The notes under the pieces: generated by a model
Told to the model about the DNA's origin: nothing
Seen by the model: only the letters and a program-made list of their open reading frames with translations
The model's database searches: none
Virus record (IMG/VR): IMGVR_UViG_3300017777_004452
Location: 1-25,871 of that record
Reading direction: 5' to 3' (one strand)
Length of the DNA: 25,871 bases
Source: a virus
Taxonomy: Duplodnaviria > Caudoviricetes
Position numbers and translations under genes: made by a program
Shown: positions 18,034 through 25,871 of the stretch, piece after piece
How positions within the stretch are numbered: the first letter of the stretch is position 1
How the letters are laid out: each line of letters starts with the position of its first letter

Positions 18034-18930
18034 ATGACTCTATTACCAAAAGCGGCACCTCGTGTCAATTACCTAAACAACCGTGATATTTTGAAAGAAA
18101 TACACTTCAGCAAGAACACCTATTGCTGGTATCGAGATCCTGTACAGGACCACCAGTTTGATTTGATACTGCCCGGCCTGGACAAAATTAATCAACGCAC
18201 TGTAGTTGAAGCAAGAAAAAATCGTGCTGATCGTATCAAGCGCGAAACAGGCGAAGTGATTGATCAAAAGAAAATTCCCAACACTGATTTAGTTTTCCGC
18301 ATCACCTGTTGGGATCACATTCCCCGAGCACCTAAAAAAATTACCAAGGCCGAAGCCAAGCGCAAAAAGCTAGAAGACATTTTTGAACTGGATGATGTGG
18401 CAGAAGATCCACTAGCAGACATTGTGGATGTGCCTGTGTTGGACCTAAATCACGTGCGAGTGAACTTTCCTCCGTTTGAACAGTATAGACTGGACGAAGA
18501 AAAGAAACCGTACCTTGTGGGTCGTAGTCACTGGAAAGGTGATTTGGCCACAGGAGAGTTTTCCAAAGATCACGGCAACATGACTCGCAAGTTAGCCATG
18601 ATGTTTATGAAACTGTGCGAACGCTATGCTACACGTTCCAACTGGCGCGGCTATACCTACAACGAGGAAATGCGTGGACAGGCTTTACTTCAACTTAGTC
18701 AAATTGGTTTACAATTTGACGAATCTAAATCGCAAAACCCCTTTGCTTACTACACCGCTGCGATCACTAATAGCTTTACACGTATTCTTAACATTGAAAA
18801 GAAAAATCAAAATATCCGAGATGACATCCTGGAGATGAACGGACTCAACCCATCATGGACTAGACAGAACTCCGGCAAAGCTGGCATGGCTGCCATGTCC
18901 GGACCGGTTGTATCTAGCTTGGATGAGTAG
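18034..18930 (+). CDS. gp55: Late-transcription sigma factor, T4 gp55-like, with a large insertion (298 aa)
   Basis: N-terminal NYLNNRDILKEI and C-terminal NWRGYTYNEEMRGQALLQL...FDESKSQNPFAYYTAAITNSFTRILNIEKKNQNIRD match gp55. The 55-47-46 gene order is as in T4-like phages. Confidence 0.85.
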   Translation: MTLLPKAAPRVNYLNNRDILKEIHFSKNTYCWYRDPVQDHQFDLILPGLDKINQRTVVEARKNRADRIKRETGEVIDQKKIPNTDLVFRITCWDHIPRAPKKITKAEAKRKKLEDIFELDDVAEDPLADIVDVPVLDLNHVRVNFPPFEQYRLDEEKKPYLVGRSHWKGDLATGEFSKDHGNMTRKLAMMFMKLCERYATRSNWRGYTYNEEMRGQALLQLSQIGLQFDESKSQNPFAYYTAAITNSFTRILNIEKKNQNIRDDILEMNGLNPSWTRQNSGKAGMAAMSGPVVSSLDE

Positions 18931-18936
18931 TATACT
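18908..18936 (+). promoter_or_regulatory. Putative sigma70-type promoter for gp47, near-leaderless
   Basis: TTGTAT (18908-13), 17 nt, TATACT (18931-36). The ATG at 18943 lies where +1 is expected. Confidence 0.45.
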
Positions 18937-18942
18937 AGCAGG

Positions 18943-19959
18943 ATGACTAATCTATTCCGCAAAGCCGCAATCTTCACTGACATACACTTTGGACTCAAAA
19001 GCAATTCAACCTTACACAATGAAGATTGTTTGGCTTTTGTAAAATGGGCAACTGCCAAGGCCCGAGAGGAAGGTTGCGAAACTGCCATGTTCCTAGGTGA
19101 TTGGCACAACAATCGGGCCAGCCTGAACATTGTCACACTAAACTACAGTCTTCGATCACTGGAACATCTAAATGCTAATTTTGACCGCGTGTATTTTATA
19201 CCTGGGAATCACGACCTTTATTATCGCGACAAGCGTGATATTCAGAGCGTGGAGTGGGCACGTCATCTCCCCAATGTGGAAATATGTAACGATTGGTTTA
19301 GTAGCGGTGACGTCGTTATTGCTCCTTGGCTGTGCGGTGACGATCACAAGAGGATACCCAAGCTAACTGGCAAGTACATGTTTGGACACTTTGAACTGCC
19401 CGGCTACTTGATGAATGCCATGATAGAGATGCCAGACTATGGAGAAGTACGTAGAGAAGACTTTGAGAATTTTGAACATGTATTCACCGGACACTTTCAC
19501 AAGCGACAGACTAAAAAGAATATTACCTACATCGGTAATGCGTTCCCTCACAATTATGCAGATGCTGGTGACGACGAACGAGGACTTACTGTACTGGAAT
19601 GGGGAGCAGCGCCTGCGTTTCATGCTTGGCCTGATCAACCAACCTATCGTGTATACGGTCTTGCAAACCTTATCGACAACGCTCCATCGCTTCTTAAGCC
19701 CAAGATGCATGTGCGTGTTGGACTAGACATTGAAATCTCATACGAAGAAGCCAACTTCATTAAAGAAACATTTGTAAAAGACTACAATCTGCGTGAGATG
19801 AGTTTGATTCCAAACAAAAACTCAGATGTAGACACAGACATGGCGCCTGGCGAAATCAAATTTGAGTCAGTTGATCAAATTGTCACAGACCAGCTCACAA
19901 ACATTGAATCAGAATTCTACGACAACCGACTACTGTTGAAGATTTATCAAACACTATGA
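18943..19959 (+). CDS. gp47: Recombination nuclease subunit, gp47/Mre11/SbcD (338 aa)
   Basis: Metallophosphoesterase motifs DIH, GDWH, GNHD, GHF and GHFH occur in order, and a Rad50-like gene lies downstream. Confidence 0.92.
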   Translation: MTNLFRKAAIFTDIHFGLKSNSTLHNEDCLAFVKWATAKAREEGCETAMFLGDWHNNRASLNIVTLNYSLRSLEHLNANFDRVYFIPGNHDLYYRDKRDIQSVEWARHLPNVEICNDWFSSGDVVIAPWLCGDDHKRIPKLTGKYMFGHFELPGYLMNAMIEMPDYGEVRREDFENFEHVFTGHFHKRQTKKNITYIGNAFPHNYADAGDDERGLTVLEWGAAPAFHAWPDQPTYRVYGLANLIDNAPSLLKPKMHVRVGLDIEISYEEANFIKETFVKDYNLREMSLIPNKNSDVDTDMAPGEIKFESVDQIVTDQLTNIESEFYDNRLLLKIYQTL

Positions 19960-20021
19960 TCTATAGTATTCAATATCTTAGTAGTTGTTCAAACATTTTG
20001 ATTATTGAAAATGCAGTATAA
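19956..20021 (+). CDS. Possible 21-aa peptide ORF (MIYSIQYLSSCSNILIIENAV)
   Basis: The ATG overlaps the gp47 stop (ATGA). The ORF fills nearly the whole spacer and ends 6 nt before, and in frame with, the radical SAM ATG. It may be a chance ORF or a relic. Confidence 0.25.
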   Translation: MIYSIQYLSSCSNILIIENAV

Positions 20022-20027
20022 AATAAC

Positions 20028-21476
20028 ATGCTTAATTTAGATCAATATGATATTGTAGCACAACTCGACCTGGCTGATGTAAGTTATGATCACACCACGG
20101 TTTACAAGTTGTTTGACGCTTACTGGCAAGAGAAATTTAATCACAATCAACGTATTGTTTTTTATACCTCTAGACATCCTCCTAAAAAATTATTAGAGCA
20201 TATAGAACGTGCAGCGCAGATTATTGATATTTCTGAATATTTTATTTTGATCTGTTGCCCGGTTGAGCTGACTACTAGTTTACAAAGTATAGTTACGGAG
20301 GTAGAAGAAACTAAAGTTTTTAAAGACAACTATACAATTCCCAGTTCGATTTGCCCTATACCGTGGTCGCACATAGAAGTTGATATTTCTGGCAACTACA
20401 AACCTTGTTGCATATATTCCGAGTCAATGCAAAAATCTGTCAGAGATTCAACTATCAACGAAGCGTTTAATAGTGCCTATATGAATAAGCTGCGTGATGA
20501 TTTTTTGCAGGGCATCAAACCTGGCGGGTGTAGTCATTGCTGGAAAACAGAAGACAACAATTTAACAAGCAATCGAATAAGGCATTTAAATTTTCTACAA
20601 AAAAAATTATTTGTAAACTATTTAGATAACGTTAAAATACGATCTATTGATGTGAAGTGTGGTAATGCTTGTAACTTTAAATGCCGAATTTGCAGTCCTG
20701 TTAGAAGCTCGTTGATTGCCGCCGAAGTTATAAAAACGTATCCAGAAAAAACTTTCAAAATCAAAGACATGTTGATCAAGAATAAATGGACAGATGATGA
20801 TACCATCACGTTCTTTGACGATTTAGAACATGCTCTGCCAGATTTAGAAAATATTGATATGACAGGTGGAGAAACGTTTTTAGTTAAAAAAATTGATAAA
20901 ATAGTACACACCGCAGTAAAAAGTGGGCACAGCAGTCACATTCGATTGCATTATAATAGCAACGGATCAATTTTTCCCAACAACCAAGCAAAATTGTGGA
21001 ACAAATTTAAACAAGTTGATCTTGCGTTAAGCATTGACAACACAGGTGAACAATTTGAGTTAGAACGCGGCGGCATCTGGCTGGATGTAGAAAACAATAT
21101 TAAAAAGTTTTTAGAATTAAATCTACCCAATTTAAACATTTATATCATGCCCACAGTCAATATACAAAACGTATTTTACATGCCAGAATTGTTAGAATGG
21201 GCAACTTCGCTGAAGTTAAACACAACGTTTAACTATTTAGAAGCGCCAATGGCTTTTAATATTGACTATCTAACAACTGAATGCAAACAACTGGTAGTTG
21301 AAAAATATAAAAGATACAGTCATCCAGAACTTGATGCTATAGCTATTCGCATTGAGAATTCCAAAGGGAGTGACGGAATCATGTTTGTTAACGAAGTAAC
21401 TCGACTTGATGGTATAAGGAGTCAATCTTTTCAAAAGACTCACCCAGAGGTTGCAAAAGCAATGGGATATGTGTAA
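20028..21476 (+). CDS. Radical SAM enzyme with an N-terminal SPASM/Twitch-like Cys cluster (482 aa)
   Basis: CNFKCRIC (CX3CX2C, 20670-20693), TGGET, YNSNGS and LSID. The SPASM-like CPIPWSHIEVDISGNYKPCC...CSHCW precedes the core. Confidence 0.88.
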   Translation: MLNLDQYDIVAQLDLADVSYDHTTVYKLFDAYWQEKFNHNQRIVFYTSRHPPKKLLEHIERAAQIIDISEYFILICCPVELTTSLQSIVTEVEETKVFKDNYTIPSSICPIPWSHIEVDISGNYKPCCIYSESMQKSVRDSTINEAFNSAYMNKLRDDFLQGIKPGGCSHCWKTEDNNLTSNRIRHLNFLQKKLFVNYLDNVKIRSIDVKCGNACNFKCRICSPVRSSLIAAEVIKTYPEKTFKIKDMLIKNKWTDDDTITFFDDLEHALPDLENIDMTGGETFLVKKIDKIVHTAVKSGHSSHIRLHYNSNGSIFPNNQAKLWNKFKQVDLALSIDNTGEQFELERGGIWLDVENNIKKFLELNLPNLNIYIMPTVNIQNVFYMPELLEWATSLKLNTTFNYLEAPMAFNIDYLTTECKQLVVEKYKRYSHPELDAIAIRIENSKGSDGIMFVNEVTRLDGIRSQSFQKTHPEVAKAMGYV

Positions 21477-21479
21477 AAT
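21451..21479 (+). promoter_or_regulatory. Putative sigma70-type promoter for gp46, embedded in the end of the radical SAM gene
   Basis: TTGCAA (21451-56), 17 nt, TAAAAT (21474-79). The gp46 ATG is at 21488 with no Shine-Dalgarno. Confidence 0.45.
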
Positions 21480-21487
21480 AAGACTTT

Positions 21488-23569
21488 ATGATTCATATTA
21501 AAAATCTCACCGTGAAGAACTTCATGAGTGTGGGCGCAGCCACACAGGCCATTGACTTTGATCGTAATGACCTTACCTTGGTGCTGGGTGAAAACTTGGA
21601 TCTAGGCGGAGATGGATCACGCAACGGTACAGGCAAAACCACAATCATCAATGCACTCAGTTATGCATTGTATGGGCAAGCACTGTCAAACATACGCAAA
21701 GATAACTTAGTAAACAAGACCAATGCCAAACACATGTTGGTTAGTTTAGACTTTCACATCAGTGGCACTGACTACAAAATTGAGCGTGGACGCAAACCCA
21801 ACGTACTCAAATTCTATGTGAACAACGAACACAAGGCCGCCGAAGACGAAGCACAAGGAGATTCAAGAGAGACACAAGACGCTATAGAGCGTATTATCGG
21901 CATGAGTCACGACATGTTCAAACATGTGCTGGCGCTAAACACATACACAGAACCGTTCCTAAGTTTAAAGGCCAATGACCAGCGCACAATCATTGAGCAG
22001 TTGTTGGGCATTACCTTGTTGAGTGAACGTGCTGACCGCATTAAAGAACTCAACCGGCAGACCAAAGATGCTATTCAGTTGGAAGAGTTTAGAATTCGTG
22101 CTGTGCAAGAAGCCAACAAACGCATTGAAGAACAGATTGAAAGTTTAAAGCGTAGACAAGTACTTTGGCAAAAGAAGTATGACAGTGACTTGGCTTACCT
22201 AGTTGGGCAGTACGACGATCTAGCAAAGATCAACATTGAACTAGAGCTACTGGCTCACAAAGATCTAGCTGTGTGGTCTGCAAGAAAACAACAACAAGAT
22301 GCATATACTGCTCTTGTGGGTCGACAAACTGCGTGGAAACAAAAACAACACAAAGACATCGGTGAGTTAGAATCAACCTACAACAAACTCAGCCACATTG
22401 ACATTGCAGCAGAGCTTCGGGCACATATAGACTTGGCTGCTTACACCCAGCGAGCCAAAGATATAGCTGACCTTGAAAAATATATTGCTAGGTGTGTAGC
22501 GGACGAAGCCAAAGAACAAAAAGTTATTGATAAACTCCGAGCCGAAATTGAAGAATTAAAAGATCACAAGTGCTATGCGTGTGGACAAGACTTCCACGAT
22601 ACCAGTCACGAAACAGTGTTGGCTGCAAAAGAAAAAGCCTTGCAAGAAGCAGCACTACAAGCGTTAAGCACCAACACTCAGTGGATGGAAAATACCAATG
22701 CACTGAGCGCACTAGGCAAGTTGGGCACCAAACCTACCGCCCACTACAAAACAGAAACAGAAGCAATTCGACATTCTAGTGAGCTAGAAAACATTCAGCA
22801 CAAGATTGATGCCAAACGTGCAGAAACAGATCCCTATGCCGAACAACTAGCAGAACACACACCTGTAGAAGTTGGCACACAGCCTGTCACGCATTATGAT
22901 ACCGAAACACAGGCAATTGATCATCGCAGTCGCATGAACACCATGCTCACACAGATTGATAATAAATCACAAGAGACTGATCCATATACAGAACAAATTA
23001 TCGAAATGCAACAACAGGCCCTGCAGGTTGTGAGTTATGATCACTTGAATGAACTCACAAGAGTGCAAGACCATCAAGACTTCTTGCTCAAACTGCTAAC
23101 CTCAAAAGATTCGTTTGTGCGCAAGAAGATCATTGACCAGAACTTGAGTTATCTCAACAGTCGTCTCACACACTACTTAGATAGAATTGGCTTGCCACAC
23201 ACAGTGAAGTTCATGAACGATCTAAGTGTGAGCATTGAAGAACTGGGTCGTGAATTGGACTTTGACAACCTAAGTCGTGGCGAACGAAATCGACTAATTC
23301 TAAGCATGAGCTGGGCATTCCGTGATGTTTGGGAAAGTTTGTACTCGCCCATCAACTTGTTGTTTATTGACGAGATGATCGACAACGGGTTGGACACACA
23401 AGGTGTAGAGAATGCACTGGGCTTGTTGAAGAAGATGAGTAGAGAACGTCACAAGAGTATTTGGCTCGTGAGTCACAGAGATGAGTTAACCAGCAGGGTA
23501 GAGAACATTCTCAAGGTCGTCAAAGAAAACGGCTTTACCAGTTACAATACAGACATAGACTTAGCATGA
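21488..23569 (+). CDS. gp46: Recombination ATPase subunit, gp46/Rad50/SbcC (693 aa)
   Basis: KNFMS, Walker A NGTGKTT, coiled coil with a central CYAC zinc hook (22571-22582), signature LSRGE, Walker B LLFIDE, D-loop NGLD and H-loop VSH. Confidence 0.93.
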   Translation: MIHIKNLTVKNFMSVGAATQAIDFDRNDLTLVLGENLDLGGDGSRNGTGKTTIINALSYALYGQALSNIRKDNLVNKTNAKHMLVSLDFHISGTDYKIERGRKPNVLKFYVNNEHKAAEDEAQGDSRETQDAIERIIGMSHDMFKHVLALNTYTEPFLSLKANDQRTIIEQLLGITLLSERADRIKELNRQTKDAIQLEEFRIRAVQEANKRIEEQIESLKRRQVLWQKKYDSDLAYLVGQYDDLAKINIELELLAHKDLAVWSARKQQQDAYTALVGRQTAWKQKQHKDIGELESTYNKLSHIDIAAELRAHIDLAAYTQRAKDIADLEKYIARCVADEAKEQKVIDKLRAEIEELKDHKCYACGQDFHDTSHETVLAAKEKALQEAALQALSTNTQWMENTNALSALGKLGTKPTAHYKTETEAIRHSSELENIQHKIDAKRAETDPYAEQLAEHTPVEVGTQPVTHYDTETQAIDHRSRMNTMLTQIDNKSQETDPYTEQIIEMQQQALQVVSYDHLNELTRVQDHQDFLLKLLTSKDSFVRKKIIDQNLSYLNSRLTHYLDRIGLPHTVKFMNDLSVSIEELGRELDFDNLSRGERNRLILSMSWAFRDVWESLYSPINLLFIDEMIDNGLDTQGVENALGLLKKMSRERHKSIWLVSHRDELTSRVENILKVVKENGFTSYNTDIDLA
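22151..22445 (+). repeat. Degenerate in-frame tandem duplication (56-aa period) in the gp46 N-terminal coiled-coil arm
   Basis: RQVLWQKKYDSDL..L...YDDLAKINIELELLAHKDLAVW aligns with RQTAWKQKQHKDI..L...YNKLSHIDIAAELRAHIDLAAY. The Trp codons at 22166 and 22334 are 168 nt apart. Confidence 0.8.
22721..23005 (+). repeat. Degenerate in-frame tandem duplication (50-aa period) in the gp46 C-terminal coiled-coil arm
   Basis: GTKPTAHYKTETEAIRH...IDAKRAETDPYAEQL aligns with GTQPVTHYDTETQAIDH...IDNKSQETDPYTEQI. The Gly codons at 22724 and 22874 are 150 nt apart. Confidence 0.85.
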
Positions 23570-24078
23570 AGATACTAATCACTGGTACTCGAGGCCTTGC
23601 ATATGAATTAAGCAAAGCATATACCAATCATGAAGTGACGTTAGCCAGTCGTTCCACTGGGTTTGATGTCAATAATATCGATCACTGGGGGCATGAGTTT
23701 TTAGAGTATGATTGTGTGTTTAACTGTGCATATGATGGCTTCGCACAAGTCAAAGTATTAGAATTTTTTTACACTCAGTGGAAGCACGATGTAAACAAAC
23801 AGATTGTGTCTATTGGAAGTCGCACTATCACATTTAGACGATCAGAAAATGAATCAGGATATTGGGCATATCGATTGCACAAGCAGGCATTACAACAAGC
23901 GCATGACTCAATGCTGTTGGATGCAAAATGTGATATGAAAATTATCAATCCAGGACCTGTTGATACTGACATGATTCGTCATCTCAATTGTGTAAAATTA
24001 GATACAACAGCCCTGGCCAATGCTATAAAAAACATTTCTGCCGATGCCACTATCAAGCGAGTTGACCTATGGGCGTAA
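23566..24078 (+). CDS. Minimal short-chain dehydrogenase/reductase (Rossmann fold, 170 aa)
   Basis: MKILITGTRGLA (nucleotide-binding loop), VFNCA, IGS (catalytic Ser), YRLHK (YxxxK) and INPGPVDTDM. It overlaps the gp46 stop via ATGA. Confidence 0.78.
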   Translation: MKILITGTRGLAYELSKAYTNHEVTLASRSTGFDVNNIDHWGHEFLEYDCVFNCAYDGFAQVKVLEFFYTQWKHDVNKQIVSIGSRTITFRRSENESGYWAYRLHKQALQQAHDSMLLDAKCDMKIINPGPVDTDMIRHLNCVKLDTTALANAIKNISADATIKRVDLWA

Positions 24079-25172
24079 ACTGGCAGTTTTATCATTGGCA
24101 TTTAGAACCCAGTGCAGTATGCACATTAAAATGTCCTAGATGTCCCAGAACAGAGCATCCAGATACAGCATGGCTGAATAAAAACATGACCTTGGAGTTT
24201 GTTAAAAAGTTTTTTACAGAAAACATGTTACGTAATCAAGTGCGTAGAGTTACCATGTGCGGCGATGTAGGCGATCCTATCTACTGCAAAGAGTACATTG
24301 AAATTTGCAGATACATTAAAAGTATAAATCCACAGATACACATCTTTACAATTACCAACGGCAGTCACAAAAAACCTGCATGGTGGGCAGAATTGGGCTC
24401 TGTACTAAACGAATATGATGCAGTTAATTTTAGTGTAGACGGTTACGACGATCTGTCTAACAACATGTACAGAGTCAACAGCAACTGGAACAGTATTGTT
24501 GACGGTATCACTGCTCTGCGACAAGCCAACAAAGACGTTTTTATAAATTGGGCCATGATCATGTTTCGGTTCAATCAAGATCATGTAGACTCAATCAAAC
24601 AACAGGCGTTTACATTAGGCATGGACGCATTACAAATTACAAGATCAACTAAATTTGGCAGTAAGTATGGTAATGCATACGGGGGTGCAGATGACTTGCT
24701 AGAACCTCGTGTAGAAAATATCAGTTCCACACACAGGTACGAGCGTGAAACACACAACTTGTCAGGCCGTCAAATTAACAATCATGAATACTTAAAACAC
24801 AACAAACAAAAATATCTACAAATCAAACAACAATATCACAATCAACCAGTCACACCGCTATGTGAAATTGGCAATAGAGGAATCTATGTCAATGCAGAAG
24901 GTGTTGTTTTTCCTTGCAGTTGGACAAGTTTTCCTTATACAAGTCTCACACATCAGGACAAAACCATACACTGGCCAGACAGTTTTTTTGCAAAATATCG
25001 GCAGCAAATGAATTTGAACAACAGAACTTTTGAAGAAATCATACAAGATCCACTGTGGAACATGTGTAGCACTGGATTCACTGACCCTGCTAAAACTTGG
25101 GTAGAGTGCAGTCAGAAGTGTTCTACCAATTTGGTTACAGAAAACTACGCAGTTGGGTGGGAAACAAACTAA
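24069..25172 (+). CDS. Radical SAM enzyme with a C-terminal SPASM/Twitch-like domain (367 aa)
   Basis: CTLKCPRC (24120-24143), CGDVGDP (GGEP variant), TNGS, FSVDG, and C-terminal CEIGNRGIYVNAEGVVFPC...CSQKC. It overlaps the SDR gene by 10 nt. Confidence 0.88.
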   Translation: MGVNWQFYHWHLEPSAVCTLKCPRCPRTEHPDTAWLNKNMTLEFVKKFFTENMLRNQVRRVTMCGDVGDPIYCKEYIEICRYIKSINPQIHIFTITNGSHKKPAWWAELGSVLNEYDAVNFSVDGYDDLSNNMYRVNSNWNSIVDGITALRQANKDVFINWAMIMFRFNQDHVDSIKQQAFTLGMDALQITRSTKFGSKYGNAYGGADDLLEPRVENISSTHRYERETHNLSGRQINNHEYLKHNKQKYLQIKQQYHNQPVTPLCEIGNRGIYVNAEGVVFPCSWTSFPYTSLTHQDKTIHWPDSFFAKYRQQMNLNNRTFEEIIQDPLWNMCSTGFTDPAKTWVECSQKCSTNLVTENYAVGWETN

Positions 25173-25181: not shown

Positions 25182-25610
25182 ATGACATGGCTTTACAACA
25201 ATCAATCTGTAGAAACTCTCCCAGATGATTGCATTGGTTTTGTTTATCTAATCACAAATAATCTCACTGGACGCAAGTACATAGGCAAAAAATTAGCAAA
25301 ATTTTCGAAAACAACTACAAAAACAGTTAAACTCAAAAACGGCACAAAGAAGCGGAAGAAGATACGCTCAAAGATCGATTCGGATTGGAGAGAGTACTAT
25401 GGGTCAAGCCCAGAATTAACCGCAGACGTAATCACCCTAGGCACCGAAAACTTTACCAGACAAATACTTTACTATTGTAAATCAAAATCAGAATGTTCGT
25501 ACATTGAAGCAAGAGAACAGTTTACAAGAAAAGTATTAGAATCAACAGATTATTACAACGGCCATATCCAAGTTCGTGTGCATGGCTCGCACATCATAAA
25601 CAAACTTTAA
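25182..25610 (+). CDS. Stand-alone GIY-YIG nuclease (SegE-like catalytic domain, 142 aa)
   Basis: GFVYLITNNLTGRKYIGKK (GIY-YIG variant), YYGSS, ENFTRQIL, YIEAREQ (catalytic Glu helix) and YYN. It has a highly basic insertion and no C-terminal DNA-binding domains. Confidence 0.85.
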   Translation: MTWLYNNQSVETLPDDCIGFVYLITNNLTGRKYIGKKLAKFSKTTTKTVKLKNGTKKRKKIRSKIDSDWREYYGSSPELTADVITLGTENFTRQILYYCKSKSECSYIEAREQFTRKVLESTDYYNGHIQVRVHGSHIINKL

Positions 25611-25619
25611 TCACGACTC

Positions 25620-25871
25620 TGTGCTGAGTGTTTGACTCAGCCCCATTGCGGAACGGTGCGATACCCGGTCCAGACTTGGGCGTCAAAGGCAACTGTTAAC
25701 TTAAGGCAGTAAATGGTTTGGGCTCTGTGAAAAAGCAACCCATGCTCGTAGGATTTAGATCTATTCTGGATTACTAGGGTTCCGTTGATATGTGAAGCTA
25801 GAGTAGGGGGTACCGGTCAACCGCCTCCGTGTGTGCAAACACAATCTCTTTAGAATAGATGACTGCGGTCA
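25620..25871 (+). ncRNA. Putative large structured non-coding RNA of unknown class, truncated at the window edge
   Basis: There is no credible ORF: stops occur in all six frames within 25760-25871. GC is about 48% by hand count (116/240 over 25621-25860). It has many stems, including a GCAA tetraloop hairpin, and G-U pairs that favour the plus strand. Confidence 0.6.

Follow-up and report, generated by a model that had tools for sequence, protein, structure and literature searches.

A pseudoknotted RNA with twin direct repeats downstream of a GIY-YIG nuclease gene in lake T4-like jumbo phages, with relatives in Rak2-like phages: a candidate replication-origin primer

The window analysed here, the whole 25.9-kb stretch (25,871 nt), is a fragment of a T4-like jumbo phage. 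Baseplate genes occupy its minus strand and are followed by a plus-strand run encoding, in order, the late sigma factor, a gp47-like protein, a radical SAM protein, a gp46-like protein, an uncharacterised ORF, a second radical SAM protein and a 142-aa GIY-YIG protein. The gp55 late sigma factor, gp47-like and gp46-like genes (18034..23569, +) head this run, which ends in the nuclease and a structured RNA. The two radical SAM genes lie within the gp55-47-46 run (20028–21476 and 24069–25172), one of them between gp47 and gp46, and similar cargo stands ahead of the nuclease at two other loci, L146 and L160. The nearest cultured relatives, judged by gp46, are PA5oct, Atu_ph07 and the Rak2-like phages. 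A related complete genome, G001, encodes its own tmRNA (110821–111310) and 27 tRNAs.

The nuclease gene (25182..25610, +) encodes a stand-alone small GIY-YIG protein assigned to PF19835 (SegE_GIY-YIG, profile E 2.6e-33) and belongs to phrog_447, which is wrongly labelled 'NAD synthetase'. PF19835 is its sole domain; the HNH and RuvC domains typical of HEARO/OMEGA nucleases are absent. The Lys-rich arm noted in the first-pass annotation is present; in the predicted structure it forms a long beta-hairpin (mean pLDDT 81.5). Residues Y22, Y33, G35, E109, E112 and N126 are invariant in 30/30 sequences; no residue was recognised as equivalent to the catalytic arginine of I-TevI. Foldseek searches with the model gave no match at E < 0.001, the best-probability PDB match being a weak one to the I-TevI catalytic domain (probability 0.66, E 0.45), and a sequence search of the PDB returned nothing significant. 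The family is very large, matching 8000/8000 scored candidates and 463 phage records. Small GIY-YIG enzymes such as T4 Endo II, Slx1 and Eco29kI are active without an appended domain or RNA.

In related phages, the position following gp46 is occupied by a GIY-YIG protein, a phrog_244 protein (RusA/Hjc-like) or a T4 Endo VII (gp49)-type enzyme, three proteins with mutually unrelated folds. Loci that display the alternation are the window (25182–25610), L146 (2690–3202), L160 (3492–3998), L205, L206, L207, L291 and L292. A GIY-YIG gene and a phrog_244 homologue were found together in 0/16 records, 0/80 loci each way and 0/5 half-genomes; G003, S-SRM01 and phiN3 carry the GIY-YIG gene plus PF02945 matches elsewhere in the genome. 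Because the three enzymes alternate in one slot, the PF19835 protein is likely, by analogy, to be a Holliday-junction or branch-cutting counterpart of Endo VII or the RusA/Hjc-like enzyme. T4 Endo VII is described as resolving branches and working with gp46/47 at regressed forks (PMC3016281). A literature search found no resolvase activity for PF19835 proteins. If the protein does stand in for Endo VII, the common 'NAD synthetase' annotation would be corrected.

Downstream of the nuclease gene lies a structured RNA, here termed type A, with a full length of ~325 nt, of which the window holds the first ~260 (25615..25871, +; ~257 nt). The contig end cuts it ~3 nt short of the first of two twin repeats, a position taken from L005, whose element is 98.5% identical to that of the window over 261 nt; because of this truncation, all repeat and tail data come from relatives, chiefly L005. 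Placed from L005, the RNA would continue to the equivalent of ~25933 and a tail of DNA-type hairpins to the equivalent of ~26000. The GC fraction of the RNA region (0.49) lies above that of three other spacers in the window (0.22–0.38), as the first-pass annotation had remarked, and is equalled or exceeded in several coding stretches (0.50–0.57).

Comparison across 29 sequences supports a 13-helix model with two pseudoknots in which 95.8% of cells are paired and both-side (compensatory) changes occur in 38/74 pairs. None of 500 shuffles scored as high, and slid controls were 33–46% paired; helix 12 was out of register in this calculation (46% paired), its correct register coming from a separate comparison. 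An 83-sequence set returned the same helices; it is biased at columns 176–196, which were fixed by the search pattern, a bias of which set A1 is free. The covarying structure includes G-U pairs, and the unpaired bases include invariant ones. The evidence for structure is comparative, because the lone sequence folds no better than shuffles (z -0.56, 41/200 shuffles as good), and single-strand folding was not significant on either strand.

The type A-specific 5' domain (25615..25684, +) comprises P1 (25615–17/25682–84), P2 (GCTGAGT/ACTCAGC, 25623–29/25635–41), P3 (CCCA/TGGG, 25642–45/25677–80) and P4 (25650–58/25662–71). It is followed by the P5 hairpin (25694–97/25705–08), for which covariation is weak, by the P6 hairpin (TGGG/CCCA, 25719–22/25739–42) and by the P7 hairpin (25749–58/25766–76), whose loop (25759–65) pairs with 25854–60 to form pseudoknot a. 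A core common to type A, type B and the Rak2-like copies discussed below (25782..25849, +) contains pseudoknot b (GTTGAT/GTCAAC, 25784–89/25816–21), P8 (25800–03/25846–49), P9 (GGGGGT/GCCTCC, 25806–11/25823–28) and a GNRA hairpin (TGTGT-GCAA-ACACA, 25830–43).

All stems listed in the first-pass annotation are present in the sequence, and their fates diverged once relatives were aligned. Compensatory changes in the 29 relatives uphold P2, P6, P9 and the GNRA hairpin. The proposed ACTGTT/GGCAGT stem is paired in 94.6% of cells, with no both-side change in the 29 sequences and a few in the 83-sequence set. Of a supposed 12-bp helix, the first 7 bp covary and constitute the loop-to-tail pseudoknot a, and the last 5 bp fail. 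The same holds for GCGGAAC/GTTCCGT, CCCGG/TTGGG, CGG/CCG and the terminal TGAC/GTCA; these five stems or stem parts are together paired in 68.6% of cells, a value reached by 488/500 shuffles. Four helices had been missed, namely P1, P3, P7 and pseudoknot b.

Contigs from lake RNA libraries cover the type A element in several runs, and one 151-nt contig spans the nuclease gene end and the RNA with no differences; such contigs carry no strand, end or level information and may include DNA carry-over, and no weight attaches to stretches left uncovered or to runs with a small share.

Rfam scanning of the window gave no match to RF01718 or any other family at gathering score or at E up to 10, and seven type A loci gave no RF01718 match. 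Group I/II introns, RNase P, tmRNA, GOLLD, ROOL and OLE were likewise not found, a search that truncated or remote members could escape. Together with the covariation in relatives, this agrees with the earlier suggestion of a large conserved structured RNA outside any catalogued family, and type A is supported, on comparative sequence evidence, as an uncatalogued RNA class. Of 589 confirmed nuclease loci, 80 were kept, six of which end ~200 nt or less past the stop codon; the remaining 74 all have an RNA downstream, with type A at 32, type B at 34 and type C at 8; six of the 74 loci were reassigned by hand.

Type B RNAs occupy the same position and start with the Polynucleobacter-1 motif (RF01718, 83–118 bits). 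Types A and B have the 3' core, twin repeats and tail in common, and the type B profile matches the type A core at E 6.5e-14; the RF01718 model spans 141 positions, none of them in this core. The type A 5' domain of the window matches neither RF01718 nor any other Rfam model. In the table entries of Weinberg et al. (2010, PMC2864571), the motif has 16 representatives and no function is given; a full-text literature search for Polynucleobacter-1 found it in that paper alone.

Type C (~400 nt) lies downstream of the nuclease at L001, L012, L014, L024, L028, L034, L050 and L062; its body differs, and its twin-repeat end is the same except that C replaces G in both copies. Type E, which follows the phrog_244 gene at L378, L385, L387, L389, L390, L394, L395, L397–L400, L402 and L404, has cGNAg motifs and a core like that of the other types; a hairpin separates its twin GGCAA-type repeats, which are both altered in L394. 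Neither type gave an Rfam match in the four loci of each that were scanned. Searching cultured phages by blastn with type A and type B RNAs yielded nothing useful. A pattern scan of genome contigs produced 38 matches, of which four are clear elements in lake MAG contigs and two more score weakly. Type A/B elements occur in Bacteroidota-binned MAG contigs (L266 and L273, Haliscomenobacter; L261 and L279, Flavobacteriales), two of them with the nuclease. These are probably mis-binned phage contigs, so the binning is no reliable host call. Lake genomes have one element copy each, at a single fixed position; G001 showed no extra copies and one stray descriptor match.

In HEARO/OMEGA systems (IscB, TnpB), a small nuclease gene lies beside a structured RNA, and the locus resembles them in this respect. 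The first-pass annotation had proposed that the RNA serves the GIY-YIG nuclease as guide, scaffold or cofactor. An RNA-pattern search recovered 64 non-redundant type A loci with at least 2 kb upstream, and the GIY-YIG gene is adjacent in 50 of them, which favours the proposal, as do the predicted basic beta-hairpin and the occurrence of type A, B or C at each of the 74 nuclease loci whose downstream sequence is long enough. Against it, 12 of the 64 loci have intervening genes, and two have no GIY-YIG gene and carry instead an unrelated phrog_244 gene ('RusA-like resolvase'). Starting from phrog_244, 80 loci were fetched, from which 21 duplicates and 2 short loci were dropped to leave 57. Type A lies directly after the gene in 20 and at 0.8–1.15 kb in 7 (total 27, some assignments being weak at 57–125 bits), and type B directly after it in 13 and further on in 3; 13 of the 14 loci with neither have type E, with its similar core and twin repeat. 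Nucleases that are 98.6% identical adjoin RNAs of different types (A and C, or A and B) with different 5' domains, and the RNA type differs in 19/49 nuclease pairs at least 95% identical. On a poorly resolved nuclease tree RNA types are clustered, yet 13 changes are needed.

The two also occur apart in cultured phages: five T4-like phages have the nuclease with the next gene 0–150 nt away, leaving no room for the RNA, and Serratia phage BF, with its five related elements, lacks a PF19835 gene. The longest variable unpaired run of the RNA is 9 columns, compared with a guide of ~16–20 nt. HEARO/OMEGA systems differ further in having HNH/RuvC nucleases where a GIY-YIG enzyme stands here, and the present RNA matches nothing in Rfam, lacks a guide-length variable segment and shows no obligate linkage to the nuclease. 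A distribution of the RNA independent of the GIY-YIG gene had itself been named in advance as contrary evidence, and because this is the distribution found, a nuclease-RNA system is not supported; we consider the guide, scaffold or cofactor role highly improbable, and the GIY-YIG gene is likely a replaceable neighbour of the RNA. Separately, a short extra ORF lies between nuclease and RNA at L012 and L014 (4430–4690), genes of ~1 kb lie between them at L002, L015, L021, L046, L054, L064 and L074, and another putative nuclease-like ORF lies just past the RNA at L027 and L071.

The window closes within the TGAC arm that starts the first imperfect direct repeat (25860..25871, +), whose 7-nt covarying part begins ~3 nt further on. 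In relatives, two 7-nt direct repeats follow just past this point. Among 83 type A sequences examined, of which three were unparsed, the repeats are identical in 75/80, the exceptions being three with six matches and two with two matches; they are also identical in 24/25 parsed type B sequences (6 unparsed) and in 7/7 of type C. The strongest type A covariations include two column pairs that are kept identical rather than complementary. With the repeats excluded from tree building, the two repeat positions show 16/16 and 22/21 changes, 16 and 22 being joint, and 10 of 11 independent pairs change in the same direction (p 0.002), which the within-copy control does not. No third, complementary partner for the repeats was found in the alignment or nearby (3/53 vs 5.0 for other states). 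The repeats form part of ~20-nt imperfect units, the TGAC arms of which also covary between copies.

The second repeat is followed by an AT-rich stretch and then by DNA-type hairpins. The first 40 nt of the tail are 66–77% AT, a weak signal as the genomes are AT-rich overall. Mini-hairpins of the cGNAg type are specially stable as DNA. They occur on the top strand of 46/81 type A, 20/28 type B, 5/8 type C and 14/19 Rak2-like tails, compared with 2, 5, 0 and 0 on the bottom strand and with 0.2–0.5% of random windows.

Copies in cultured phages were reached by position, through an 800-nt gap of Serratia phage BF that corresponds to the place of the lake element. The gap sequence matches 62 phage records, and each of the 50 listed has 4–5 matching places. 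BF (NC_041917) has five co-oriented copies, at 30.6, 93.3, 174.9, 259.1 and 335.6 kb; GAP32, Munch and XaC1 also have five and 121Q has four, again co-oriented, as is expected where most genes lie on one strand. These copies are unannotated paralogous elements of ~500 nt in which the hairpin separating the repeats contains a run of six Gs. A descriptor combining core, repeat and hairpin finds exactly five copies in BF and none in ten shuffles; it was written after BF had been seen and recovers just 6/28 type B loci. As the type A and type B sequence profiles did not find the BF copies, their link to types A and B rests on position and this post hoc descriptor. Pseudoknot letters covary among the Rak2-like copies, and most copies have an extended -10-like motif 280–400 nt upstream. 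The last six repeat letters match in 17/19 copies, the middle ones having been fixed by the pattern used, and the first letter differs in 8/19. Gaps between BF copies (52–84 kb) are more even than chance (P 0.005); the corresponding values are P 0.003–0.005 for BF, GAP32 and Munch and marginal for 121Q and XaC1 (P 0.05–0.07), and the five tests are not independent because the genomes are kin. The descriptor recognised no core in the syntenic stretches of PA5oct, Atu_ph07 and Vibrio phage 2.275.O, and a PA5oct pattern match at 99.2 kb has no tail. None of the four ncRNAs tabled for PA5oct (PMC7318152) falls within the syntenic gap, and the CBB paper, as far as its accessible text extends, makes no mention of the element repeats.

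In GAP32, Munch and XaC1, the repeat letters differ between copies of one genome and match within each copy, which fits base pairing better than the specificity of one protein. Repeats that must be identical and that vary between copies point to one repeat pairing with the other's complement, in other words to the RNA pairing with its own template. These observations bear on a DNA-level reading, in which the element is an origin or recombination site whose iteron-like repeats bind a phage protein, transcription serves merely to open the DNA, and the repeats owe their likeness to slippage or conversion. The ~20-nt imperfect units with jointly changing TGAC arms and the placement of DNA-type hairpins after the repeats are in its favour, and among T4 origins oriE is reported to have iterons (PMC3016281). 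It does not account for an RNA structure that covaries over ~260 nt and includes G-U pairs, and the repeat letters switch often in close kin as well as between copies of one genome; we therefore regard it as quite unlikely.

We propose, with about even confidence, that the element is a cis-acting replication-origin primer of T4-like jumbo phages that pairs onto its own template. In lake phages the RNA would form the 3' terminus of the gp55-47-46-nuclease transcript; no promoter-like site was found upstream of type A, which would be read through from the operon. In Rak2-like phages it would be made from its own extended -10 promoter. Repeat 1 of the folded RNA would then pair with the template strand at repeat 2, for which the repeat copies must be identical and not complementary. 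This pairing would nucleate a persistent R-loop through the AT-rich stretch, the displaced top strand could fold into cGNAg mini-hairpins that load a helicase or primase, and the primer would result from RNase H trimming of the RNA, as in ColE1 RNA II and T4 oriF. The lake element lies at a strand switch in most loci, and this position, the identical repeats, the AT-rich stretch, the displaced-strand hairpins and the spaced copies fit an R-loop primer origin. Several points count against the proposal: strand composition, described next, gives it no support, type A yielded no upstream promoter-like site, the descriptor drew a blank in PA5oct, Atu_ph07 and Vibrio phage 2.275.O, the seven-base anchor is short, iteron-like protein sites or gene conversion could likewise maintain repeat identity, and the large 5' domains are unaccounted for because T4 oriF needs no elaborate fold.

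GC/AT skew, computed over all sites and four-fold sites, tracks gene strand, and neither the G001 element nor any of the five BF copies coincides with a switch. The lack of a skew signal is in keeping with a trans-acting or RNA-level role outside replication, as a ribozyme, protein scaffold, antiterminator or transcript-end stabiliser whose repeats bind something as RNA; so are the elaborate two-pseudoknot fold with its invariant unpaired bases and the relatives in lake RNA-library contigs. We judge a role of this kind unlikely, as identical copies have no way of pairing within one RNA, a third partner was looked for and not found, the cGNAg hairpins of the tail are strand-specific, and several copies set at intervals along a genome speak for a cis-acting element.

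Bridge-RNA-like guides have an RNA segment that covaries, by identity, with its own DNA, and the RNA could on this model be the self-targeting guide of a mobile cassette, repeat 1 directing an enzyme to the DNA of repeat 2 and so driving the swapping of RNA types. That swapping beside near-identical nucleases is the observation in its favour. The single fixed position in lake genomes, the want of a constant adjoining enzyme gene and the lack of a reverse transcriptase (PF00078 in 0/5 genomes, control positive in 3/14) oppose it, and its chance of being right appears slim. The same PF00078 result led us to reject a retron, DRT or DGR template RNA.

A broader form of the primer proposal, which we hold at somewhat less than even confidence, is that structured-RNA origins with matched-repeat anchoring may start replication from lake T4-like jumbo phages to Rak2-like coliphages, in at least five swappable types and with 4–5 origins spaced round the 350-kb Rak2-like genomes. 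A literature search found no replication origin for these jumbo phages. If the primer proposal is correct, a structured-RNA origin class would be new for phages and the origins of these jumbo phages would be named; orphan RF01718 would gain a function, its model describing one of several interchangeable 5' domains.

Two known systems invite comparison. ColE1 RNA II anchors by an RNA stretch that pairs with a downstream template repeat. The type A element is like it in being a folded non-coding RNA of several hundred nucleotides with a proposed template hybrid; it differs in that RNA II belongs to a plasmid and the element to phages, in being pseudoknotted, and in that no sequence match was seen and no antisense control RNA identified. 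For RNA II, a persistent hybrid at the 3' end has been proposed, with helicase loading on the displaced strand (PMC5043065). T4 replication is described as starting from several origins, some of them located at strand switches, that feature a promoter, an AT-rich unwinding element and R-loop formation and need ~100 bp with no specific sequence or fold (PMC3016281). The likeness to oriF and oriG lies in the several proposed origins (some at strand switches), a presumed transcript, an AT-rich element and T4-like replication genes nearby, with a promoter-like motif before most Rak2-like copies and none found before type A; the difference is a conserved knotted RNA with twin repeats, present here and not needed in T4.
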